The notes under the pieces: generated by a model
Told to the model about the DNA's origin: nothing
Database searches by the model: none
Seen by the model: only the letters and a program-made list of their open reading frames with translations
Source: an uncultured Candidatus Peribacteria bacterium
GTDB taxonomy: Bacteria; Patescibacteriota; Gracilibacteria; UBA4473
Reading direction: 5' to 3'
NCBI GenBank assembly: GCA_964344775.1
Contig: CAYFOO010000002.1
Span: 15-64,014 of the forward strand
Length of the DNA: 64,000 bases
In this document: piece by piece, positions 1,498 to 54,047 of the stretch
Numbering within the stretch: position 1 is the first letter of the stretch
Layout of the letters: every line of letters starts with the position of its first letter
Position numbers and translations under genes: made by a program

Positions 1498-2808
1498 TCA
1501 GCCCTCGTCAGTCTCGAGATTTAATTCCAGACTACGACTGACAGGTCGGTCGACAGGCAATTTTTCCAAAAGACATTCTAGCGTTTTATATCTTTCTCCG
1601 AGGGCCGTTTTTGCGTTTTTTAATAAAGCCTCTTGTGTCCACTGATTTGGATATTTCTCATTAAGACTTGTCTTTTTGTACAGCGGAGAAAGGGCGATTA
1701 AACAAAAAATATAAAAACAATCTTTTTCGCCTGAAAGATGATGGCTTCGCCAAACATCGGGTGGAACGCTTTCAAAATATTCCCACAGTACCTCGGATAT
1801 TTTTTTTAATTCCGTAGAAAAATTGCCGCCAAAATAAGCACTCAAAAAAGCATAAAGCGGATCTTGGCTTTTGAAGTCAGCCACTTCGTAGGGGGATTTT
1901 TCGATCAAAGAAGCCAGGTGGTGGAGAAACTTGTGCATGACACTGATCTGATCTCGCAAGATCTCTAAAGGCTGGATTTCTTTTTCGGTTGTTTTGAGAA
2001 ATCGAGAAGAATCCAAATCGGTAAAAACGACCTTTTGACTCCCAAGGCAGTAGTAGAAATTATCCAGCCCTCCGGAGTGTCGATAGATTCCGGATGATGA
2101 AAATTTGTATAACTCTTCTCCCACTTTTTGCATTAATTTTGCCAGTATTTCTGTTCTTTGCATTTTTGGCTCGGAAGTTTTAGAAACTTTTAAATCTTCG
2201 AACAGGGCTTCATAAAATTTTTGAAATTGCGGATTATTTTTTTCGGTTTGAAAAAGCACGCGATCGAGTCGATAGGGATTATTTTCTTCCACGAGAGAAA
2301 CCGCTACTCCCATCACCTTTCCTTCAAAAAGGTGATCCGGATATTCGGCTACCAAAAGAGGCGGAGTGACTGAAACCTTATTTTTATAAAGATGAAGTGC
2401 GGCTTCGTATTCTTGTAATGCTCGGCGGTGTTCGATGCCTCCAAAGGGAGAAATTTCACTGGTCAGCGTTCGAAAATCTCCCTGCCCTGAAAAACCAAAA
2501 TGTTTCACTTTTTGCCCCGTTTCGTATTTCTCAGAAGTTGGTGGATGGGGGGCATTGTAAATCTTTTTTTCGTACTGTCCGCGGAATTGATGTGCCGATT
2601 CTGGATTCCAGATTCCGATTCCTTTGAGCTTGAGAGCGGCAAAAGGTTTCCCAGAAACAGAGATGGGATTTTTAAGCACGTGCCAGGCCGTCCTGCCGGG
2701 AGCGAGAAACTGAGGCGGGGTTTCCCAGGATAGCAAATCATTGATTTCATCTTGCTGACCTTTGGACAAATCCACGAGTTCGGATTGATGGGTGATATTG
2801 AATTTCAT
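1498..2808 (-). CDS. hypothetical protein, possible protein-kinase-like fold
   Basis: ATG at 2808 overlaps the stop of the upstream gene (TAATG). Motifs by eye: AALKLKG (beta3 Lys-like), RRALQEYEAAL (alphaC-like), YRHSGGLDNF (catalytic-loop-like), VVFTDLDSS (DFG/DxD-like). The fold assignment is tentative. Confidence 0.6.
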   Translation of the reverse strand: MKFNITHQSELVDLSKGQQDEINDLLSWETPPQFLAPGRTAWHVLKNPISVSGKPFAALKLKGIGIWNPESAHQFRGQYEKKIYNAPHPPTSEKYETGQKVKHFGFSGQGDFRTLTSEISPFGGIEHRRALQEYEAALHLYKNKVSVTPPLLVAEYPDHLFEGKVMGVAVSLVEENNPYRLDRVLFQTEKNNPQFQKFYEALFEDLKVSKTSEPKMQRTEILAKLMQKVGEELYKFSSSGIYRHSGGLDNFYYCLGSQKVVFTDLDSSRFLKTTEKEIQPLEILRDQISVMHKFLHHLASLIEKSPYEVADFKSQDPLYAFLSAYFGGNFSTELKKISEVLWEYFESVPPDVWRSHHLSGEKDCFYIFCLIALSPLYKKTSLNEKYPNQWTQEALLKNAKTALGERYKTLECLLEKLPVDRPVSRSLELNLETDEG

Positions 2809-4322
2809 TATGAAAGATATTGGCAATGGGTGGTGTGCACTTGAAAATTAGACAAATCGATATCGTCAAAAAGTGATTTTGATTTTAAGATTTCAATTTC
2901 TTCCTCCATTTTTCGTTTTTCAAAATTATAAATCAGGATTGTCTTGTGTCCGACAATGAAAATGAATTTTCCATCGTCAGAAACTTCCAGAGCGATATAT
3001 TCGGCTGCATGTCCGGGGTGATGATAGTTGAGAAAGTCAGCCATGTCTTCCGCCCCAATATCGTCCAAAAAGTTTTTTCCAATGTCGTGATGAAATTCCA
3101 AAGACATATTTTCGGCATTGATAAAAAAGAGTCGATTGGGTTTTCCAATGGTGCAGATGTAGATTTTTCCTCCGAAAGAAAAAACCTTGTGCGAAGTAAA
3201 CCGGTATCCTCGTGTATCAGAAAAACTTTCTTTTTTTGTGAGTCCTTTTTCGGTTATTTCAAATTTATCAATGGCTGCTGGACCGAAAAAAGTACGCCCT
3301 CCTTCTAGTTTGGCAAAGTTGTGGCAAGAAACAAAAACGCATTTTCCGTCCGGATGAAGTTCAAAGTGGGCCGGAGTGGAATAGGTCGTGTGATATAGAG
3401 TTTGTTGATTTTTTGATAAATTTATGGTGTTGATGTTGCCTTCTACTGGTTTTACCAAAAATTCTTCCCGGGCATCACAGATTTCTCGGAAAGATTTTTC
3501 CCCAAAAAGAGATTGGACGTACAATTCAAAATCAGGTCGGAGGTCATAAGTTCCATTGAATTCATCAATCGAAATTGATTTTTGGAAATTTTCTTCTGAA
3601 AAATTTTCACTCATTTGTTCACAAAACTCTTGGAACAGAATTCGAAATACATACTTGTATAATTGAGCCCGATCAAAAATCTCCCCTGTTTTTTGCACCT
3701 GAAAACAAACATCAGAAAAATCAGAATTGAGTAAAAGATTCCCATGTTTTTTGGTCACATGCGGGCATCCCCGTCCTCGAGGGTCAGTGAAAATTTCTTC
3801 AATTTTTTTCAGATCGAGGGTCGATCGATAATATTTCACTACACCTTTGTCTTCAGAAGAATTTTGGTGCAGGGCTGAAAAATAAAAATAGTTCGGATCT
3901 TCATCATCCGGGAAAATGGTGGAAACAAATTGCGTGATATTTTCATTATCTGGAATCGGAAGATCTTTTCCGGTAAGTACTTTTAATTTTTTATTGGCCG
4001 GATCTACCAAATAAAAGTACGGACTGTTTTCTACAAAGTTGAGAAAGGCACCATTTGAATTAACGCATAAAGAAGAATGTGGTTTGAATATTTGAGGGCA
4101 CTGATAGGAGGTGTTTTTTATTGTTTCTAAATTTTCTAGAGAATAAGAAGTGAGATAGGTGCTTTCTCCTTTTCGGAAATCCAAAAGCACAAAAGAAACC
4201 AAAAAATTTCGCTTATCTTTTCGGTGCCGGAGATAAAACATTAACGGGGCATCAAAATTCTCAGCCACCTTTTCAGGAGCTTTGAATTTTTCGGTATTGA
4301 TGTGTAGATCAAGTCCAAGCAT
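2808..4322 (-). CDS. 504-aa hypothetical protein, paralog B (His/Cys-rich, no family recognised)
   Basis: Long ORF. Shares conserved blocks with 4443..5957: MLxLDL, DPxxKKxKVxTGxDL, EDPxxFYF, CPHxTK, PAHFE, SxHNF, FFGPAxIDK, FSDxRGYRFTSH, GKPNRLF, ALEVSxxGxF, HCQY tail. Confidence 0.8.
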   Translation of the reverse strand: MLGLDLHINTEKFKAPEKVAENFDAPLMFYLRHRKDKRNFLVSFVLLDFRKGESTYLTSYSLENLETIKNTSYQCPQIFKPHSSLCVNSNGAFLNFVENSPYFYLVDPANKKLKVLTGKDLPIPDNENITQFVSTIFPDDEDPNYFYFSALHQNSSEDKGVVKYYRSTLDLKKIEEIFTDPRGRGCPHVTKKHGNLLLNSDFSDVCFQVQKTGEIFDRAQLYKYVFRILFQEFCEQMSENFSEENFQKSISIDEFNGTYDLRPDFELYVQSLFGEKSFREICDAREEFLVKPVEGNINTINLSKNQQTLYHTTYSTPAHFELHPDGKCVFVSCHNFAKLEGGRTFFGPAAIDKFEITEKGLTKKESFSDTRGYRFTSHKVFSFGGKIYICTIGKPNRLFFINAENMSLEFHHDIGKNFLDDIGAEDMADFLNYHHPGHAAEYIALEVSDDGKFIFIVGHKTILIYNFEKRKMEEEIEILKSKSLFDDIDLSNFQVHTTHCQYLS

Positions 4323-4330
4323 TTGTATAA

Positions 4331-4410
4331 AAGGTGGGAAGTTGTAGGTTGTAAGTTGTAAGTTGCCCGGCCTTCGTATCCCGACGAGTCGGGAGGAGTA
4401 GGCTAAGGGG
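4331..4410. repeat. GTTGTARG-word repeat (family A) with nested mini-palindrome
   Basis: aaggtgggaagttgtaggttgtaagttgtaagttg + cccggccttcgtatcccgacgagtcgggaggagtaggc. Confidence 0.7.
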
Positions 4411-4442: not shown

Positions 4443-5957
4443 TCAAAAATATTGGCAATGAATGGACTTGCCGTAGCAATCCTGGAGTGCGGGGTGGTGA
4501 GACCTGATTGATTCATCAAGAAATGGGAGTTCGGCCACCACTTTTTTCTCCCGCATGCTATAAAAAACAGTCGAAAAGGTCCCAATCAAACAAATAAATT
4601 CACCGTTTTCCGAAACTTCCAACGCTACGTATTCCATCTGTTTTTGACGGAAATGGTTGAGGGCATCGGCTACTTTTTCTTCTGGAATATCTGACAAAAA
4701 ATCTGGACCAATATCGGTAAAATGATCCAGTTCCATCGTCTGAGCATCAATGATGAAAAGTCGATTTGGTTTCCCAATCGTGCAGACATACCCCTTGTCT
4801 TCAAATCGGAAAAATCGATGCGAGGTAAATCGATATCCTCGCGGATCAGAAAAGCACCCTTTGTGAATTAATTTTCCATCGGTTAATTGATATTTATCGA
4901 TCCCGGCCGGGCCGAAGAAAAATCGAGATTCAAAGGTGCAAAAATTATGAGAGGAAGTGTAAATACAATCTTCTTTTTCATCGATCTCGAAGTGGGCCGG
5001 AGCAGCAAAAGTGGTATCGATTGCTTGAAAATCTAAAGTTTCCAAGTCGAGCATGGTTATTTTCCCGGGTGCCAATTCAAACTGACATTCTGGGATCTGA
5101 TCACAGAGTTCTTTGAAGTTGCAATCGCCAAAGAAAGATTTGATATACAGATCAAAATCCGGATCAAGTTCGTACATTTGATTTTCACCGATAGTAAATG
5201 ATTTTTGATATGCTTCTTCTGCAAAATCTTTCCCAATCGCTTCACAATATTTCTGGTAAAGATGTCGGTAGGTCCGGTTCAGCAATTCTTTTTTTCGGAT
5301 AATTTTCCCATCTTTTTTGAGCTTAAAATCGATATTTTCAAAGTTAGAATTAAAAAGATAATGGTGATGACTTTTCGTCGTGTGCGGACATTTCCCTTTT
5401 TTTTCGGGGTGCGAAAAAATTTTTTCGATATTTTTTAACTGGGCATCGGTTTTATAATAATGAATCATAATTCCTTCCCCAGAACGATCCGTGTGAGCAC
5501 AAAAATAAAAATGATCGGGATCCTCCTCAATCCAATAAAAAGTAGAACCGAAACTCAAAATATCTTCTGCTTCTTCACAATTCAGATCTTCGCCCGTAAA
5601 AACTTTTATCTTTTTGGCTTCTGGATCCACAAAAAATAAAAATCGGCCGTTCTCGATAAAGTTGTAAAAACTATTTGTCCCTTTTATCCGGAGGGTGGAA
5701 TGAGGGCAGTGCGTGAGGGCTGTTTGGAGCCAGGATTCTCGATGATACGCATCCGTCTTTTTTTGGTTTTTTGGGGAAAAGCAAGAGTAGTAAGTCATTT
5801 CTTTTTTCTGAAAATCCATCACCACAAAGGTAGTAAAAAAGTTCCGCACGTCTTCTGTATGCCAGCAATAAAAAATTATGGGATTTGGAAATGCCTCACA
5901 AATAGCATCCTCCAATTTGAATTTTTCTTTGTGAATTTGTAAATCAAGTTCCAACAT
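4443..5957 (-). CDS. 504-aa hypothetical protein, paralog A
   Basis: Same length and same conserved blocks as 2808..4322. About 35-40% identity by eye. Confidence 0.8.
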   Translation of the reverse strand: MLELDLQIHKEKFKLEDAICEAFPNPIIFYCWHTEDVRNFFTTFVVMDFQKKEMTYYSCFSPKNQKKTDAYHRESWLQTALTHCPHSTLRIKGTNSFYNFIENGRFLFFVDPEAKKIKVFTGEDLNCEEAEDILSFGSTFYWIEEDPDHFYFCAHTDRSGEGIMIHYYKTDAQLKNIEKIFSHPEKKGKCPHTTKSHHHYLFNSNFENIDFKLKKDGKIIRKKELLNRTYRHLYQKYCEAIGKDFAEEAYQKSFTIGENQMYELDPDFDLYIKSFFGDCNFKELCDQIPECQFELAPGKITMLDLETLDFQAIDTTFAAPAHFEIDEKEDCIYTSSHNFCTFESRFFFGPAGIDKYQLTDGKLIHKGCFSDPRGYRFTSHRFFRFEDKGYVCTIGKPNRLFIIDAQTMELDHFTDIGPDFLSDIPEEKVADALNHFRQKQMEYVALEVSENGEFICLIGTFSTVFYSMREKKVVAELPFLDESIRSHHPALQDCYGKSIHCQYF

Positions 5958-6071
5958 CTTATAAGAAGGTTATACACCTTAATGTTAAAAATAAAAAATG
6001 AGGTATAATGCCGCAAGGTTTTATTACATTTTTATTTCCAAGCCTGTGCGGTATAATATATTTTCCGTAAA

Positions 6072-7109: not shown

Positions 7110-7231
7110 AAAATTTGGAAAGCGGAATGTAAAATTTAGGAATTGAATTTAGTTTTGGGAATAAAAAATGGTAAGTAGAAAAAGGAATATTTCTTGACGA
7201 ACATCGAATAAAAAATAATCTCAGGGCGGAA

Positions 7232-7492
7232 ATGACACCAGAAAAAATTGTTTTTTCAAAACATGTGGAGATACAGATGAAAGAAAGAGGGACCACGAAA
7301 GAAGAAATTCTTGAGACTATTAAAAAAGGGGAAAGTGTTCCTGCCAAAACGGGAAGAAAAGCTTTCAGAAAAAACTTTCCGTTTGAAAAAGAGTGGAATG
7401 GAAAATGGTATGGGATTAAGCAAGTGATGTCGGTTATAGAAAAGAGAAAAGAAAAAACAATTGTCATTACGGTTTATACTTTTTATTTCTAG
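7232..7492 (+). CDS. DUF4258-family protein (putative toxin)
   Basis: FSKHVEIQMKERGTTKEEILETIKKGE ... IVITVYTFY pattern. Followed after 6 nt by a DUF2283-like gene. Confidence 0.65.
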   Translation: MTPEKIVFSKHVEIQMKERGTTKEEILETIKKGESVPAKTGRKAFRKNFPFEKEWNGKWYGIKQVMSVIEKRKEKTIVITVYTFYF

Positions 7493-7498
7493 TTGACC

Positions 7499-7720
7499 AT
7501 GAAAATATCTTATGACGAAGAAGTTGATGCGGCTTATATCCGGTTTACGGAAAAACCGGCACAGGTGACGACGCAGAGAATTTCAGAGGACGTGGCGATT
7601 AATTTTGGTGAGGATAATGAGGTTGTGGGGATTGAAATTCTTTCGGCACACAAGCATCTTTTTCCGCAGCGAGAGAACTTGCATATTGAGATTGAGAATG
7701 CGGAGGTGGAAAAAGTGTAA
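7499..7720 (+). CDS. DUF2283-family protein (putative antitoxin)
   Basis: MKISYDEEVDAAYIRFTEK...NFGEDNEVVGIEILSA pattern. ATG at 7499 is preferred over the TTG at 7493. Confidence 0.65.
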   Translation: MKISYDEEVDAAYIRFTEKPAQVTTQRISEDVAINFGEDNEVVGIEILSAHKHLFPQRENLHIEIENAEVEKV

Positions 7721-7836
7721 ACAGCAAAGTGGCTCCACATGCAATATGGAGTCTGCATGAGGGGTGGGGGGAGACGAAAAATGGCAAATGGGAAAATGGA
7801 AATGTAAAAAACTCGAGATGTTTCTTAGTCTGTCTT

Positions 7837-7927
7837 CTGCAGGAGCAACTTTGTAAGTTGCTTCGGAATGTTTTTAGTGTTGCACAACCGAAACGTTTTG
7901 GTTCAATTTACAAAATTGAGCCTGCGG
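7837..7927 (+). ncRNA. candidate structured element, four-way junction, short copy (T)
   Basis: P1 ctgcagg/cctgcgg. P2 gcaact-ttgt-agttgc. P3 aatgttt/aaacgtt. P4 ggttcaattt/aaattgagcc. Homologous to 48358..48476, with compensatory changes in P1 and P2. Functional strand uncertain. Confidence 0.5.
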
Positions 7928-7977
7928 AGATCAAAAATTAATCATGAAATTATATCATGATTTAGAGGATTTTTCAA

Positions 7978-8024
7978 TTTCAAAATACACCTCCCCACTT
8001 TTCATCACCTTTTTTTAGCACCGG
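7978..8024 (-). pseudogene. degenerate copy of the last ~15 codons of recG
   Basis: ttcaaaatacacctccccacttttcatcacctttttttagcaccgga compared with 8525..8572 ttcaaaaatacacctccccactctccaccaccttcttcagcaccgga. About 6 mismatches plus compensating indels that break the frame. Confidence 0.7.
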
Positions 8025-8025
8025 A

Positions 8026-8409
8026 CTAAATCTTTCTCGGAGCTCTCCCCTTGTATACAATGCTATAAAAATGCTTGGCTTGATTCCCCGTTTGTCGAAC
8101 TACTACCTCCAAACAGTTTGATTTTATCACCACCTGAAAACTCCAAAACTGGTGTTCATTGCATCCTTTTTTCAAAACAGTGTGAGATTGAAAATAAGGC
8201 ATTTCTTTCAAAATTTGGGGGACCAAATGCAGATGTTTCACACGAAAGTAGGATTGTTTGAGTGTTCGGTCTTTCTTATTGATCAAATGTTCCCAGCCGA
8301 TCCGGGTAAGTAAAACGTTCGACTTCAAGCTCGGGCAGAATATTTTCTTGGGCAAAGAAAAATACAACTGCCGAGCTTCTGCGATTATCTTTTTGTAATC
8401 TGGGGTCAT
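8026..8409 (-). CDS. hypothetical protein (127 aa), cargo between the recG 3'-end copies
   Basis: ORF fills the segment flanked by the two recG-3' repeats. No family recognised. Confidence 0.5.
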   Translation of the reverse strand: MTPDYKKIIAEARQLYFSLPKKIFCPSLKSNVLLTRIGWEHLINKKDRTLKQSYFRVKHLHLVPQILKEMPYFQSHTVLKKGCNEHQFWSFQVVIKSNCLEVVVRQTGNQAKHFYSIVYKGRAPRKI

Positions 8410-8525
8410 AATAAAAAAGTCCTTGTCTCGCCACGCCTCATTTGCAGGCTGTCAGGACTGTATTGCTACAGATTCCTTCAAGGACAGATCGAGTGTAAGA
8501 ATGAACGAAGAAAAATGCAAGTTTT

Positions 8526-10547
8526 TCAAAAATACACCTCCCCACTCTCCACCACCTTCTTCAGCACCGGATATTTTTTGAGCCCCATGTCTTCCTTGAG
8601 AATTCGGATCGCCCAATCTCTCGCCTTACTGATCATCTCGACATCTGTCAGATCCGCACATTTCAGATCTGGGAAACCACTCTGTCTGACACCATACACT
8701 TCTCCCGCACCCCGCAATTTCAAATCCACCTCGGCCAGATACATCCCGTCATTGGATTTTTCCATCGCCTTGAGACGTTCTTTGTGTTTGTCTTCCGTTT
8801 TTCCCGTCATCAGGAAGCAGTAGCTTTGCATGGCATTCCGTCCGATCCTCCCTCGGAACTGATGCAATTGAGCAAGGCCAAATCGTTCGGAATTTTCAAT
8901 CACCATGGCCGTGGCATTCGGGATATCGACCCCGACTTCAATCACCGAAGTGGAAACCAAAATATCAAATTCATGATTGCGAAAGGATTCCATGATGGCC
9001 GATTTTTCTTTTGGTCGTAATTTCCCGTGAAGAAATTGCACTTTTCGATTTGGGAAAATGTCATTGGCGATCCGATCAAATTCTTCTTTTACGTTTTTGG
9101 CCTCGATTTTGTCCGACTCATCGATCAGCGGACAGATCCAGAAAATTTGTCTCCCTTTCTCGATCTGATCATCAATAAACCTGTTGCAAAGGGTTCGCGT
9201 TTTTTCGTCTGCGACCACGCGTGTAATGATCGGTTTTCTGCCGGGAGGCATTTCATCGATCACGGAGAGATCTTGATCCCCATAAATTGTTAACGCCAAG
9301 GTTCGTGGGATGGGAGTGGCAGTCATGGCAAGCACATGAGAATTATTCTCTGCCAAAGTGCTTCGTTGAGCCACTCCAAATCGATGCTGTTCATCAATCA
9401 CAGCTAAACCCAAATTTTGGAAAACCGTATCTTCGGTCAGGATAGCGTGCGTTCCGATGAGTACCTTGATCTGTCCGGTTCGGAGTTTGTTTTTGATTTC
9501 TTCTTTCTTTTTTGCCGTGACGGATCCCGTGAGCAATTCCACGGAGATTTCTGGACCAAAAAATTTCAGTGCTCCTGCAAAATGCTGTGTCGCCAAAATT
9601 TCAGTGGGAGCGAGAAAAGCCGCCTGAAATCCTTTTCTCACTACTTGCATGGCGGCGAGAAAAGCCACAATTGTTTTTCCACTCCCCACATCTCCTTGCA
9701 TGAGTCGGTGCATCGGCTTGGAGGCCTCGAGATCTTTCACGATGTGATGTAGACATTTTTTTTGGGCAGCGGTCAGCTCGAAAGGGACTTTTTTGAGATC
9801 TTCTTTTATTTGTTCCACTTCAAAAGGAATAATAAAAGTGTTTTTCTGATTTTTTTCTCGTGCTATTTTTTCTCGGATCACCCGCATTTGGATCGTAAAA
9901 ATTTCTTCAAATGCCAATCTCCTTTTGGCTTCGTTCCATTCTTTTATGTTTTTTGGATGATGAATCGCTCTGGTAGCCACCGGTTTTGAAAGTAAGTTTT
10001 CTGATTCCAATATTTGAGAAGGAATGGTTTCCGGGAATTCTAGAGCGAGTGGGAGGAGGGGGGTGATCTTGTCTCGAATCCATTTCGAAGTGATGGGGGG
10101 AGATTCTGGATAGATCGCTCGGAGTGCACCGACATGTACGCCTCGATCCAGATGTACTTCTGGATTGAGTATTTGTACCTGGCCATAGTTTCGATCCACT
10201 TTTCCCACCAAAAAAACACGAGCATCATCTCTCAAGTTTTTTAAAACATAAGGAATCTGAAACCACACCACCTCCAAAGAAGTTTGATCATCTAAAAGCA
10301 ACACGGCTTTCCCGAGCACTCTTCCACGAGGAGTTTTTTCTTTCCGAATATCCGTGAGAATTCCAGAAAAAGTATTTTTTTCTCCCAACCGAATACTTTG
10401 AAAATCCGGTACAATTTCTGTCGATTCGATGGCCCGAGGGAAAAATTCTAGGAAATCTTTTACCGAAAAGACGCCTAATTTTTCTATTTTTTTGAAGTGT
10501 GCGGAAGTTGATTTAATCGCGTTTTTAAGCGGCGAATTGAGAGACAT
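8526..10547 (-). CDS. recG: ATP-dependent DNA helicase RecG
   Basis: GDVGSGKT, DEQHRFG and MTATPIPRT helicase motifs, with an N-terminal wedge/OB region. 673 aa. Confidence 0.9.
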   Translation of the reverse strand: MSLNSPLKNAIKSTSAHFKKIEKLGVFSVKDFLEFFPRAIESTEIVPDFQSIRLGEKNTFSGILTDIRKEKTPRGRVLGKAVLLLDDQTSLEVVWFQIPYVLKNLRDDARVFLVGKVDRNYGQVQILNPEVHLDRGVHVGALRAIYPESPPITSKWIRDKITPLLPLALEFPETIPSQILESENLLSKPVATRAIHHPKNIKEWNEAKRRLAFEEIFTIQMRVIREKIAREKNQKNTFIIPFEVEQIKEDLKKVPFELTAAQKKCLHHIVKDLEASKPMHRLMQGDVGSGKTIVAFLAAMQVVRKGFQAAFLAPTEILATQHFAGALKFFGPEISVELLTGSVTAKKKEEIKNKLRTGQIKVLIGTHAILTEDTVFQNLGLAVIDEQHRFGVAQRSTLAENNSHVLAMTATPIPRTLALTIYGDQDLSVIDEMPPGRKPIITRVVADEKTRTLCNRFIDDQIEKGRQIFWICPLIDESDKIEAKNVKEEFDRIANDIFPNRKVQFLHGKLRPKEKSAIMESFRNHEFDILVSTSVIEVGVDIPNATAMVIENSERFGLAQLHQFRGRIGRNAMQSYCFLMTGKTEDKHKERLKAMEKSNDGMYLAEVDLKLRGAGEVYGVRQSGFPDLKCADLTDVEMISKARDWAIRILKEDMGLKKYPVLKKVVESGEVYF

Positions 10548-10690
10548 AGTTTTTTGCGGAAGGAGAAAAAGTAAAAAAAAACTTGCAAAGGTTTTGGTTT
10601 TCCACGAAAATTTACCTACTAGATTTCTTTGCCAAGTTTAATTTAATCATTTAAGCTCAAAGAAACAAAATAAAATTTATTTTTAAAAAA

Positions 10691-38884: not shown

Positions 38885-39244
38885 ATGCGTACGGAAGTCC
38901 TAGAATGCGTTCGAGAGCTTAGGAAAAACTCAACTCCTGCTGAAAAAATCTTTTGGGAAATGGTTCGGGCAAAAAGATTTTTTGGGAAAAAATTTGTAAG
39001 ACAGCAGGCTTTTATTTTTGATTATGAAGGAGAAAAAAGGTTTTTTGTAGCTGATTTTTATTGTGCAGAAAAGAAATTGATTATAGAAATTGATGGGAAA
39101 ATTCACGAATCACAAAAAGAAAAAGATCTGATACGAACTGAAATTCTTAATTTATTGGGCTTGAAAGTGGTTCGTTTTACTAATGAAGAAGTATATAATG
39201 ATCTAGAAATGGTTAAATTGCAGTTGGCAACATTAGTTCAATAA
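38885..39244 (+). CDS. DUF559 (Vsr-like endonuclease fold) protein
   Basis: LRKNSTPAEKIFWEMVR...VADFYCAEKKLIIEIDG..H...D..R...L...GLKVVRFTNEEV. Confidence 0.8.
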   Translation: MRTEVLECVRELRKNSTPAEKIFWEMVRAKRFFGKKFVRQQAFIFDYEGEKRFFVADFYCAEKKLIIEIDGKIHESQKEKDLIRTEILNLLGLKVVRFTNEEVYNDLEMVKLQLATLVQ

Positions 39245-39265
39245 AATTTCATTTTTAATTTTAGC

Positions 39266-39718
39266 ATGAACACACTCTTTGATAACATGGACTCGAAAGC
39301 TTCTAAAAAAACTACACGTGTAGGAAAACTTTTCTGCGACGGAGGAAGTCGTGGAAATCCCGGGATTGCTGGTGGAGGAGCGGTGCTTTATGACGAAAAA
39401 AATAAAGAAATTGGCCGAGATGGCGTTTTTTGCGGTATCACCACCAACAATGTGGCGGAATATTCTGGAATGATCTGTGGGATGAATTTAGCTTTGGAAA
39501 AGGGGATCACCGATTTGGAAGTATTTCTCGATTCCAAATTAGCCGTAGAACAAATGAACGGACAGTGGAAAGTAAAAAATGCCGGACTCAAACCACTTTT
39601 TGAAAAAGCCAAAATAACCGCTGATAAATTCCAAAAAATCACTTTTAAACACGTTCCCAGAGCCAAAAATGAAGTCGCCGATGCGATTGCAAACAAGGTG
39701 ATGGACGAAAATTCATAA
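39266..39718 (+). CDS. rnhA: ribonuclease HI-family protein
   Basis: CDGGSRGNPGIAGGGAVL, NNVAEYSG, DSKL..Q..G.WKVKN, NEVADAIAN. Confidence 0.8.
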   Translation: MNTLFDNMDSKASKKTTRVGKLFCDGGSRGNPGIAGGGAVLYDEKNKEIGRDGVFCGITTNNVAEYSGMICGMNLALEKGITDLEVFLDSKLAVEQMNGQWKVKNAGLKPLFEKAKITADKFQKITFKHVPRAKNEVADAIANKVMDENS

Positions 39719-39763: not shown

Positions 39764-39911
39764 CGGCCAGCTCTGCCCACTGAATAAGTGGCAGGAGCGG
39801 TGATCTTTTACATGTCGTTTGTGTTTAAAATTAGTAAAATAGTAAAGTAAAGACTTCTAAATATGTTTTCTGTGATTTACTCACTGAAGCATAATCAAGT
39901 CTGAGTATTGA

Positions 39912-42915
<3,004 letters not shown>

Positions 42916-43020
42916 TTTCAATCATTCAAGCTTGATTTTGTTTCGGTGGGTAATTTTCAGAAAACAGTTTAGTTTTTACAGACACAAACGATGTAGATAA
43001 CGCTCAACCAAAGAAGGTTT

Positions 43021-43138
43021 GGCGTTGGCATTTATAGCGAAGGGGGTACACCTGATTCCATTCCGAACTCAGCCGTTAAGCCCTTCAGCACTGATGATAC
43101 TTGGGGTTACCCTGGGAAAGTAGGACGATGCCAACGTT
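43021..43138 (+). rRNA. rrf: 5S rRNA
   Basis: Helix I gttggca/tgccaac. ccgaactcag..gttaag and gggaaagtagg core. Confidence 0.85.
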
Positions 43139-47533: not shown

Positions 47534-47597
47534 GGTTGTAAGTGGGAGGTTGTAGGGAATAAATATCCTTACAACTTATAACTTACAACTTCTCACC
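47534..47597. repeat. family A hairpin
   Basis: ggttgtaagtgggaggttgtaggg-aataaata-tccttacaacttataacttacaacttctcacc. Confidence 0.7.
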
Positions 47598-47605
47598 TGT
47601 CTTTT

Positions 47606-48352: not shown

Positions 48353-48607
48353 TTTAAGGCTGGAGCGGATTTGTAATCCGGTTCGCAACGTTTTGGAAGT
48401 GCACAACGGAAAACGTTTAGGTTCAATTTACCATCCTACGTTAAAACTCTGGATGACAGGCAAAATTGAACCAGCCGTCTTTTTTTCCAGATCGTTCAAT
48501 TCGCTTCGCGACCGAGCAATGAATTACTCGGTTAACAGCTTCTTGCATAGTTGCTTGTTGATAGTTTTTTACTGCTAGTTCTCAAGTATCTTCCCCAATT
48601 CCTGCTT
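48353..48607. repeat. 255-bp direct repeat, copy 1 (includes a 33-bp nrdR 3'-end fragment at 48575-48607)
   Basis: Identical by eye to 48896..49150 (offset 543 bp). Confidence 0.85.
48358..48476 (+). ncRNA. candidate structured element, four-way junction, long copy R1
   Basis: P1 ggctgg/ccagcc. P2 cggat-ttgta-atccg. P3 aacgtttt/aaaacgtt with the loop ggaagtgcacaacgg. P4 ggttcaattt/aaattgaacc with the inner hairpin catcc/ggatg. Followed by gtcttttttt. Confidence 0.5.
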
Positions 48608-48895
48608 TACTTCTTCTTCTTTGGTGTATAATGAGCAGATTTATTATTTTTTAATCAAAAATAAAATGCCAAAATCAAAACCGTCATCGGCTCCAGAGGG
48701 AAAAGAAAAAGCGACTCAAAAGCCTCAAACTTCAGAAGAACGTGAAGCAGGGCAAAGAGCTTCTGAAAAAATGTTAGGTGTTGAAAAAAGAGAAGATTTT
48801 CGGAAAGAAAGAAATAAACTTGGGTTTATTAAGAAAAAAACACCAGAGCAACTACAAAGATATCATTATTTGAATGCTCGACAAGAAGGAGTTAG

Positions 48896-49150
48896 TTTAA
48901 GGCTGGAGCGGATTTGTAATCCGGTTCGCAACGTTTTGGAAGTGCACAACGGAAAACGTTTAGGTTCAATTTACCATCCTACGTTAAAACTCTGGATGAC
49001 AGGCAAAATTGAACCAGCCGTCTTTTTTTCCAGATCGTTCAATTCGCTTCGCGACCGAGCAATGAATTACTCGGTTAACAGCTTCTTGCATAGTTGCTTG
49101 TTGATAGTTTTTTACTGCTAGTTCTCAAGTATCTTCCCCAATTCCTGCTT
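48896..49150. repeat. 255-bp direct repeat, copy 2 (overlaps the true nrdR 3' end)
   Basis: See copy 1. Confidence 0.85.
48901..49019 (+). ncRNA. candidate structured element, long copy R2
   Basis: Identical to R1. Confidence 0.5.
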
Positions 49151-49564
49151 AAACGTCTCCACATCTTTGAATTGTCGATAAACCGAAGCAAATCGGATGT
49201 AGGCGATTTCATCTAATTCTTTCAGCATGTTCATCACATCTTCCCCTATTTTTGAGGAGGCGACCACTTTTTCTTTTCCCCATTTTTCTTCCAGTGCAGA
49301 GAGATTTTCTCGGAGTTGTTCGATAGAGATGGGCCTTTTCCCGCAAGCGGTTAGGATCCCTTCTTCCAATTTTTCTCTGTCGTAGGGTTCAGAAGTTTTG
49401 TCTTTTTTCTCCACCATCAGGTTGGTCGTCTGAGGTCGTTCAAAAGTGGTGAACCGAAATTCACATTTTTCACATTCTCGTCTTCTCCGGATAGAACTTC
49501 CTGTGTCAGAGACACGCGAATCTATCACTTTTGTATCTTCGAAGCCGCAACTGGGACACTTCAT
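49118..49564 (-). CDS. nrdR: transcriptional repressor NrdR
   Basis: MKCPSCGFEDTKVIDSR...RRRRECEKCEFRFTTFE zinc ribbon plus ATP-cone. Confidence 0.9.
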   Translation of the reverse strand: MKCPSCGFEDTKVIDSRVSDTGSSIRRRRECEKCEFRFTTFERPQTTNLMVEKKDKTSEPYDREKLEEGILTACGKRPISIEQLRENLSALEEKWGKEKVVASSKIGEDVMNMLKELDEIAYIRFASVYRQFKDVETFKQELGKILEN

Positions 49565-49570
49565 TTTAAA

Positions 49571-49658
49571 AGGTTGTAGGTGGGAGGTTGTAAGTTGTAA
49601 GGATTTTTTTAATTTTTAGTTCCAAACTTTGGCGGACAGGTCGAACTTAGAACTTAGA
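49571..49658. repeat. family A left arm + 'aacttaga' tail
   Basis: ggttgtaggtgggaggttgtaagttgtaagg..aatttttagttccaaactttggcggacaggtcgaacttagaacttagag. Homologous to 53069..53190. Confidence 0.7.
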
Positions 49659-53068: not shown

Positions 53069-53190
53069 GGTTGTAGGTGGCCCGACCTTCGTCCCGAGGA
53101 CTCGGGACTTCGGTGGGGGGACGAGGTGGTAAGTTGTAAGGAATTTTTAATTTTTAGTTACAAATTTCGGCCGACACGTAGAACTTAGAA
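53069..53190. repeat. family A element interrupted by a 44-nt nested insertion
   Basis: ggttgtaggtgg [cccgaccttcgtcccgaggactcgggacttcggtggggggacga] ggtggtaagttgtaagg..aatttttagttacaaatttcggccgacacgtagaacttaga. Confidence 0.7.
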
Positions 53191-53950: not shown

Positions 53951-53975
53951 AGATTTTAATTATTAGCTTTTAAAG

Positions 53976-54047
53976 GGTTGTAAGTGGGAGGTGGTAGGTT
54001 GTAGGGAATAAATTTACTTACAACCTACAACTTATAACCTTTAACCT
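53976..54047. repeat. family A hairpin
   Basis: ggttgtaagtgggaggtggtaggttgtaggg-aataaattta-cttacaacctacaacttataacc. Confidence 0.7.

Follow-up and report, generated by a model that had tools for sequence, protein, structure and literature searches.

Background

Integron gene cassettes end in attC sites, which are bulged hairpins with extrahelical bases and an unpaired central spacer, found next to intI/attI in arrays whose cassettes mostly lack promoters, and recombined by IntI as the folded bottom strand. Folded single-stranded DNA sites also occur elsewhere, including the forked hairpin of CTX-phi attP(+) and the end hairpins of IS200/IS605. Other integrative elements insert into and replace gene ends, as SXT/R391 does at the 5' end of prfC and phage 21/e14 at the 3' end of icd, with integrase-less CIMEs accreting beside them. 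Finally, the Correia, ERIC, BOX and RUP families are structured intergenic repeats or MITEs with RNA-level effects.

Here, we describe a branched, non-coding element of ~95-160 nt detected in a 64-kb stretch of DNA from an uncultured Candidatus Peribacteria bacterium (hereafter the window, meaning the whole stretch that was analysed). The 3' end of this element, at the foot of its closing stem P1, is a junction of mobile DNA in four independent contexts, and the element fits no described RNA or recombination-site family. We tentatively propose, with a probability of about 40%, that it is a single-strand-folding recombination or end site of small integrase-less mobile cassettes, attC-like in its working while not belonging to the attC family.

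Origin and setting of the sequences

All copies of the element come from two related and co-occurring organisms (NrdR 84% identical) of a single study, in the PRJEB17505 samples. Besides the window, three contigs carry them: L078, from the same metagenome as the window, L005, from the Candidatus Peribacteria MAG GCA_964344165.1 representing the second species, and L098, another contig of that MAG. The species assignment of L098 is that of MAG binning, on which any claim of transfer between species depends.

The window is a low-G+C chromosome segment whose genes are of the usual housekeeping kind, among them recG, dprA, ruvC, ribosomal protein genes, rpoA, dnaN, tuf and 23S/5S rRNA. No recombinase, integrase, transposase or HUH gene was found in the 64 kb or beside any copy. 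The 23S and 5S rRNA genes occupy 39910-43136, with a 23S match spanning 3012 nt against a 2925-position model, and no 16S gene lies in the window; a DUF559 endonuclease-like gene and an RNase H-like gene stand just upstream (38885-39718). Tandem 504-aa paralogues without Pfam match (minus strand, 2808-4322 and 4443-5957), with similar 5' ends (4281-4335 / 5916-5970), adjoin a radical-SAM/SPASM gene (224-1423). The motif AGGTGGGAGGTTGTAAGTTGTAAGG, which reads on the mRNA as a CCTTACAACTTACAACCTCCCACC leader, directly precedes several minus-strand genes (4328-4362, 49567-49601 and 53971-54005 on the plus strand; 47561-47598 and 54016-54042 on the minus strand), and a second upstream repeat, with GGCGGACAGGTCGAACTTAGAA, lies nearby (49606-49652 / 53144-53190).

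Copies of the element

Eight copies with six distinct sequences were recovered in total, three in the window and five in related contigs. Their coordinates, with the helices of copy A according to the fold model, are as follows.

Window 7837..7929, plus strand: copy A, short form; covariance model 113 bits; near-identity to copies F and G bounded at 7835/7837 and 7929
Window 7837-7841 with 7923-7927, plus strand: P1 of copy A
Window 7842-7850 with 7856-7864, plus strand: P2 of copy A, loop TTGTA
Window 7867-7873 with 7891-7897, plus strand: P3 of copy A, its loop carrying GCACAAC at 7882-7888
Window 7900-7909 with 7913-7922, plus strand: P4 of copy A
Window 7928-7929, plus strand: conserved AG tail of copy A
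Window 48358..48476, plus strand: copy B, long form; 142 bits; then GTCTTTTTTT
Window 48901..49019, plus strand: copy C, identical to B; 142 bits; downstream of the small plus-strand ORF of segment U
L005 3094-3186: copy D, short form
L005 ~2437-2597: copy E, with extra hairpins in P2 (loop) and P4 (tip)
L078 10124-10216: copy F, 1 nt different from A
L098 3606-3698: copy G

Copies A, F and G, on three different contigs, are 1-2 nt apart over 93 nt, with flanks that are unrelated or just ~50% alike. An initial annotation of the window had reported its three copies, giving A as 7837-7927 (extended here by 2 nt) and B as identical to C, and all its statements on the sequence were confirmed. The P2 exchange of caact/agttg for cggat/atccg around the loop TTGTA, the a-t/t-a swap and wobble changes in P1, the extra catcc/ggatg hairpin inside P4 of the long copies, their gtcttttttt tail and the reading of GCACAAC in shifted frames between the two versions are all present, and gene ends lie within the stated range, a displaced recG 3' end at 54 nt and those of nrdR at 98 nt.

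Copies D and E were recovered by an exact-pattern scan of one genome per species, which gave five hits, L005 alone being genuine; an exact-pattern scan of metagenome contigs returned 69 matches, all due to chance after motif filtering. The ORF lying over copy F was recovered by a word-seeded protein search with the translation of the element, and copy G by looking up the DUF4258 toxin of the window. Scans of viral contigs gave no matches or unrelated hairpins only, and blastn against phage and plasmid collections gave no element match. Full-sensitivity cmsearch on the window and ~270 kb of loci retrieved the known copies only, two marginal matches (window 54805 and L005 5911) being rejected on inspection. 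Literature searches on the element likewise found nothing relevant. The initial annotation would have been contradicted by a lack of homologs or by homologs with broken stems; instead, five further copies keep the stems.

The element folds into a four-way junction

Unguided RNAalifold predicted an almost perfect four-way junction on the plus strand, composed of P1 (5 bp), P2 (9 bp, GGAGnnnnn/nnnnnCTTC), an irregular P3 and P4 (10 bp, GGTTCAATTT/AAATTGAACC). This better-supported partition differs slightly from the 7/5/8 partition given earlier, where two C residues are claimed by both P1 and P4. The same junction is the single-sequence minimum-energy fold of B, D and E, and RNA folding z-scores of the plus strand are -6.8 (A), -3.8 (D), -2.7 (B) and -3.1 (E). 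In the alignment of seven copies, which was fitted to the model and is thus biased towards the four-way-junction structure, 95.7% of cells pair, versus 30-54% after shifting the partners by 1-3 columns. Six pairs (three in P1, three in P2) change on both sides with pairing kept, and none of 500 shuffles reached the observed covariation score (seven copies; a four-sequence MAFFT alignment was also analysed). Folding z-scores, RNAalifold and covariation shuffles put the fold beyond chance expectation and support the four-way junction with compensatory changes that had been proposed from the window alone.

Conservation is unevenly distributed along this fold. The GCACAAC word of the P3 loop is invariant in all copies and P3 itself varies by wobble changes only, while P4 is invariant apart from one U-A to U-G change. 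Length variation is limited to the hairpin tips of P2 and P4, with insertions of 30 nt in P4 of B (the catcc...ggatg hairpin, then GACAGGC), of ~40 nt in P4 of E and of ~30 nt in the P2 loop of E. The palindrome CCCGAGTACTCGGG is nested in the P4 insertion of E, within a small hairpin repeat (..CCTGTC..CCCGAGTACTCGGG..GAAG, L005 2550-2565), solitary copies of which flank nrdR in the MAG that carries E (L084 9914-9927 and 10495-10508); its GACAGGC edge is common to the P4 insertion of B.

These features bear on an alternative that we regard as possible and only somewhat less probable than a recombination site, namely that the element is a structured RNA serving as cassette cargo or 3' end (3'-UTR, terminator, stabiliser, processing signal or small RNA gene), made from the plus strand with or just after the cassette genes, its mobility being that of the cassette. 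Covarying stems and hairpin tips of variable length are typical of structured RNAs, yet the longest helix, P4, shows no covariation. The plus strand outperforms the minus strand by 5-13 kcal/mol in every copy because many of the pairs are G-U, but this asymmetry cannot separate RNA from single-stranded DNA since the cassette genes are also encoded in plus-strand sense. In copy D, three of six P1 pairs are G-U, and P1 forms with RNA but not with DNA parameters, favouring RNA. In A, F and G, P2 is complementary to P4, so that one long hairpin is an alternative fold; for copy A, this hairpin reaches -37.4 kcal/mol versus -32.7 for the junction as RNA, whereas with DNA parameters the junction is the minimum-energy fold.

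Signals of transcription are not consistent between copies. U-rich tails, which in an intrinsic terminator come directly behind a G+C-rich hairpin, follow B/C (T7, GUCUUUUUUU), D (T5, GGUUUUU) and E (a T-rich stretch), as a structured RNA would lead one to expect, but A, F and G are devoid of such a tract, no terminator was called at B/C by the terminator scan and no plus-strand promoter was found ahead of B by the promoter scan. The P3 loop of A, F and G might also pair with the upstream island (7733-7746), a hint too weak to count.

The element is neither coding nor a known or resident RNA gene

The frames open through A, F and B/C (ORFs 7729-7941 and 48621-49121 in the window), the in-frame length of the 30-nt insertion in B and the 3-nt difference between A and F in the spacing from the upstream island to the element would suit the C-terminal part of a small protein-coding gene. 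This reading is effectively refuted by D and E: the element is not protein-coding because both carry stop codons in all six frames, in line with the earlier argument against protein-level selection. Moreover, the P4 insertion of E shifts the reading frame, the compensatory changes in P2 recode the peptide completely, no Pfam match was obtained for ORFs over the element, and a word-seeded search of 5.8 billion proteins returned the near-identical ORF of copy F alone for the plus frame and nothing for the minus frame.

Against the covariance models of Rfam 15 at gathering threshold, which cover tRNA, tmRNA, SRP, RNase P, 6S, riboswitches and self-cleaving ribozymes including twister-sister and hairpin, the window yielded 23S rRNA, 5S rRNA and one tRNA only, and the element none; ARAGORN called no tRNA or tmRNA at its copies. 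Even at E<=10, matches around the copies were limited to chance miRNA/snoRNA hits of 12-22 bits, which speaks against a structured RNA and agrees with the lack of an initial match to tRNA, tmRNA, SRP RNA, RNase P and 6S RNA.

Four lineages with NrdR 80-82% identical retain the smpB-nrdR-lepB-fn3 gene order, with nrdR-lepB spacers of 81, 145 and 207 nt devoid of the element (L087-L090, L094-L096), compared with 867 nt in the window. The element is also absent from the surroundings of nrdR in L084 and L091. Since it is missing from the orthologous nrdR-lepB spacer in four lineages, it is not a resident syntenic RNA gene. The initial suggestion of a structured RNA or recombination site thus survives on both counts, except for an RNA gene resident at this locus.

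The 3' end of the element is a junction of mobile DNA

The two loci of the window that carry the element are organised as follows.

Window 7163..7836, plus strand: body of the toxin-antitoxin (TA) cassette ending in copy A; ~99.5% identical to L098, in a different context
Window 7163-7186: diverged PM motif of this cassette, which then has a TTGACG promoter-like box
Window 7232-7492: DUF4258 gene of the TA pair
Window 7493-7720: DUF2283 gene of the TA pair
Window 7731-7747: 17-nt island of the linker, 16/17 identical between the flanks of A and F
Window 7776-7799: second PM of the linker
Window 7970..8025, minus strand: displaced, decayed recG 3' end, ~88% identical to the functional end (8522-8571), with 1-nt indels
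Window 8026..8521, minus strand: element-less cassette, ORF127 (8026-8409, 127 aa) and its upstream region, between the two recG-end copies
Window 48353..48607: repeat R copy 1, 255-nt perfect direct repeat, displaced nrdR end
Window 48608..48895, plus strand: segment U, 288-nt unique insert between the R copies, without similarity elsewhere or family match
Window 48896..49150: repeat R copy 2, contiguous with functional nrdR (49118-49564, minus strand)

A unit of ~760 nt made of promoter, DUF4258/DUF2283 pair, linker and element is ~99.5% identical in the second Peribacteria MAG (window ~7205-7929 versus L098 2962-3698), with a further 40-60 nt at ~80% on the left. Its contexts differ, namely a 345-aa gene and recG in the window versus mutS, a ParE-type pair and a 264-aa gene in L098, and the two sequences diverge right behind ...CCTGCGGAG, exactly at the 3' end of the element. 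There, copy A abuts the native downstream region of recG, and the displaced recG end begins 42-54 nt further 3' depending on the repeat start taken (7970 or 7982; core 7982-8014). On the minus strand, a near-consensus promoter-like TTGAAA-17-TGTATAAT (7949-7977) points from the recG side into copy A; it is more simply read as a hairpin, ATCATGA-TATAATT-TCATGAT, downstream of the displaced recG end. For ORF127, domain searches gave a weak LPD3 match only.

In L098, copy G abuts the purine-rich PM motif GAAAAATGGCAAATGGAAAAATGA, which also flanks the left side of the cassette. Four direct-orientation copies of PM, one per cassette boundary, occur on this contig, at 2409 (before the ParE pair), 2932 (before the DUF4258 pair), 3545 (37 nt before the element) and 3700 (directly after it). 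In L005, the order is the proC 5' end (2345-2379), a PM-like stretch, E, a promoter, ORF129, D and the displaced proC 5' end (3185-3240), which the 3' end of D abuts with 0 nt between. In L078, the displaced start of a cytidylyltransferase-like gene, with its RBS, GTG and 28 codons (10227-10300; 97% identity to 10580-10653), begins within a few nt 3' of copy F; next come a promoter, a 75-nt tRNA and the functional gene, which now begins with a new ATG. The 3' end of the element, i.e. the P1 foot, is therefore a mobile-DNA junction in these four independent contexts. An apparent microhomology of ...GCGGAG with target starts was too weak to count.

The rule initially put forward, that copies always lie near the 3' end of a minus-strand gene, turns out to be a special case, the neighbour being elsewhere a duplicated 5' end (proC, cytidylyltransferase-like gene) or a purine-rich repeat; the general rule is the 3' end of the element as a junction of mobile cassette DNA. 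Look-ups of empty sites (345-aa gene, ORF127, lepB, nrdR) returned the same arrangement or contigs broken in repeats only.

At nrdR, the two R copies are 100% identical at a spacing of 543 and comprise the element, the 98-nt spacer downstream of nrdR and the last 33 nt of nrdR (final 10 sense codons and stop); B and C are identical because both lie inside this perfect repeat. Other assemblies of the same samples break inside R, and contig breaks inside A and inside R are as expected of real repeats. Segment U contains a -10 box of the TGTATAAT type; its small ORF (ATG 48666), rich in lysine and glutamate, continues into copy C, and a database look-up of the product returned no record. The R spacer carries a hairpin at 48512-48531, just 3' of nrdR (also 49055-49074, minus sense), and a similar one stands just 3' of clpB (L078 9931-9954); their 12-nt loop region GTAATTCATTGC is identical while their stems covary (CCGAG/CTCGG versus CGGGG/CCCCG), and they could represent a conserved terminator-like or repeat motif.

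Cassettes and target duplications

With or without the element, all inserts at these loci show a target - insert - target organisation. The duplications measure 24-38 nt (PM), ~35 nt (proC), ~50 nt (recG), 74 nt (cytidylyltransferase-like gene) and 131-255 nt (nrdR), with 88-100% identity, and the inserts, of 0.28-0.85 kb, often supply an in-frame gene start or end and a promoter. Three cassettes devoid of the element, ORF127 (recG), the tRNA cassette (L078) and the ParE pair (L098), show the same long duplications, and the element is therefore unneeded in cis for this kind of insertion. This dispensability agrees with a structured RNA as mere cargo and weighs against a recombination site.

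The cargo identified in these cassettes consists of ORF127, a tRNA, ORF129 and two toxin-antitoxin pairs (window 7970-8571; L078 10227-10653; L005 2345-3240; L098 2400-3730). The L078 tRNA (10461-10535, 75 nt, anticodon UGA) is assigned to Ser by ARAGORN and scores 56 bits against the Rfam tRNA model, but lacks the long variable arm that a tRNA-Ser should have; with a promoter of its own (TTGACT-17-CATAAT), it lies inside a 279-nt insert in the 5' end of the cytidylyltransferase-like gene. A 79-aa ORF between proA and the displaced proC start (L005 3237-3681) looks N-terminally truncated or frameshifted, as its match to the 23S rRNA-intervening-sequence protein family is confined to positions 35-105.

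Cassettes carry their own promoter-like boxes (TTGAC(A/G/T)), and elements bracket them in direct orientation, as E-ORF129-D in L005 and B-U-C in the window. In four cases (A, C, D and G), the element follows a co-oriented cassette ORF at 27-116 nt, a position suited to a structured RNA at the end of a transcript; B and E, in contrast, are in no co-oriented 3' UTR, because they stand upstream of cassette promoters and next to divergent genes. The element of L098, alone between two PM repeats, may just as well be the only cargo of a mini-cassette, like the tRNA gene of the L078 cassette, which again favours RNA over a recombination site. Nevertheless, a structured RNA leaves without reason the junctions located 0-2 nt from the 3' end of the structure in four contexts.

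The element is built of two halves that form imperfect inverted repeats (in A 26/40; arms 23-27/40 across copies), near-identical copies occupy unrelated loci, relatives lack the element, and a second small palindrome (CCCGAGTACTCGGG) is nested in a P4 tip and also stands alone. All this would suit a selfish MITE- or REP-like palindromic repeat mobilised by a transposase in trans, without role in the cassettes and surviving at the few non-essential spots of a compact genome, cassette junctions being one example. We nonetheless consider this improbable. No short target-site duplication was found beside any copy, nor any flanking duplication longer than chance words, and arms this weakly alike do not make a MITE; terminal repeats bound by a transposase would not be expected to show compensatory changes inside one arm, as seen in P2. 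The copy number is low, with three copies per 64 kb in the window and none further there or in ~200 kb of related contigs, and at 93-155 nt and branched, the element differs from the 20-40 nt palindromes in high copy that define REP/BIME. Furthermore, it travels together with toxin-antitoxin genes, and F shares a diverged upstream module with A and is hence not a solo 93-nt insertion. Correia, ERIC, BOX and RUP repeats are similar in length (~100-150 nt), imperfect inverted-repeat build, intergenic location, multiple copies and foldability in transcripts, but differ in the features just listed, the element being low copy, without target-site duplication, covarying within one arm and linked to cassettes rather than dispersed.

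Comparison with folded and gene-end integration systems

The element resembles attC sites in its location at the 3' end of small gene cassettes and its co-orientation with their genes, in the direct-orientation copies that bracket cassettes, in a structure kept while some stem sequences drift and a variable terminal structure is tolerated, in a cassette boundary set at the 3' foot of the structure and in toxin-antitoxin cassettes as typical cargo. None of the attC hallmarks that were looked for was nevertheless found. The attC R'' (RYYYAAC) and R' (GTTRRRY) boxes are absent inside or <=15 nt from the element in 7/7 copies tested; its fold is a four-way junction instead of a bulged hairpin, and only A, F and G can also fold as one long hairpin. 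In addition, its cassettes have their own promoters and long (24-255 nt) flanking target duplications, and its copies are scattered at the ends of housekeeping genes, with no tyrosine recombinase, integron integrase or attI-type array in the window or beside them.

Gene-end integrative elements share with these inserts the flanking imperfect direct repeats of a gene 5' or 3' end and the supply of a new in-frame start or end with a promoter (L078, L005 and the recG site). They differ from the inserts described here, which are of 0.28-0.85 kb and integrase-less, with repeats of 24-255 nt and a four-way element at one end of some of them. The comparison with CTX-phi attP(+) and IS200/IS605 rests on strand-specific folding, two similar hairpins per site and a junction a few nt outside the hairpin foot; the element, however, has no XerCD/dif-like 28-bp core or Y1 transposase gene, and the TA cassette has one structured end only. 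As for IS200/IS605 or PATE, whose Y1 HUH transposase acts on hairpins at both ends and which insert 3' of a fixed tetra- or pentanucleotide, no Y1_Tnp or transposase domain was found in cargo or neighbours, and the 5' flanks share a T-rich dinucleotide only.

A putative end site for mobile cassettes

In the recombination or end site that we propose, a cassette would be composed of a promoter, one or two small genes (e.g. the DUF4258/DUF2283 TA pair) and the element as its terminal module, whose cassette-sense (plus) strand, once single-stranded, would fold into the nearly perfect four-way junction. A recombinase encoded elsewhere would read the 10-bp P4 stem and the GCACAAC loop of P3, P1 and P2 being required only to pair, and strand exchange would take place at the 3' foot of P1 (...CCTGCGGAG|). 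A circular form of the cassette may then be opened at the P1 foot and joined to a chromosomal target. DNA rather than RNA as the acting form, cleavage at the P1 foot, a circular intermediate and a trans-acting enzyme are parts that we infer.

The invariance of P4 and of the P3 loop alongside covarying P1 and P2 fits recognition of a folded stem. The P4 palindrome can take hairpins of 30-40 nt at its centre, as can the P2 loop, which would not be expected of a binding site for dimers on duplex DNA. The TA cassette of the window has PM on its left and the element on its right, and the element of L098 joins PM directly, which would fit a circle opened at an element|PM junction. Against this recombination site stand, besides the P1 of copy D, the insertion of element-less cassettes and the mini-cassette of L098, the lack of a recombinase gene in the window or beside the copies and the small size of the set, i.e. 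eight copies (six distinct) from two organisms of one study and a single environment.

Conclusions

More broadly, it is conceivable, although we hold it to be unlikely as a whole, that CPR (Peribacteria) host an undescribed gene-cassette system, in which promoter-bearing mini-cassettes of 0.3-0.9 kb (TA pairs, small ORFs, a tRNA) would move within and between species into the ends of housekeeping genes with long target duplications, a four-way-junction DNA mimicking a Holliday junction being the end site for a trans-acting enzyme.

CPR genomes are tiny and integrase-poor, and their horizontal gene exchange is poorly understood; the element provides a concrete case, with a 760-nt TA cassette near-identical in two co-occurring Peribacteria and an end set to the nucleotide by a folded element. 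As a recombination site, it would point to a new mechanism of cassette mobility and to a recombinase that awaits discovery; as an RNA, it would represent a new class of structured RNA travelling with mobile cassettes. Either way, its covariance model offers a handle to map hotspots of accessory genes in Peribacteria genomes.
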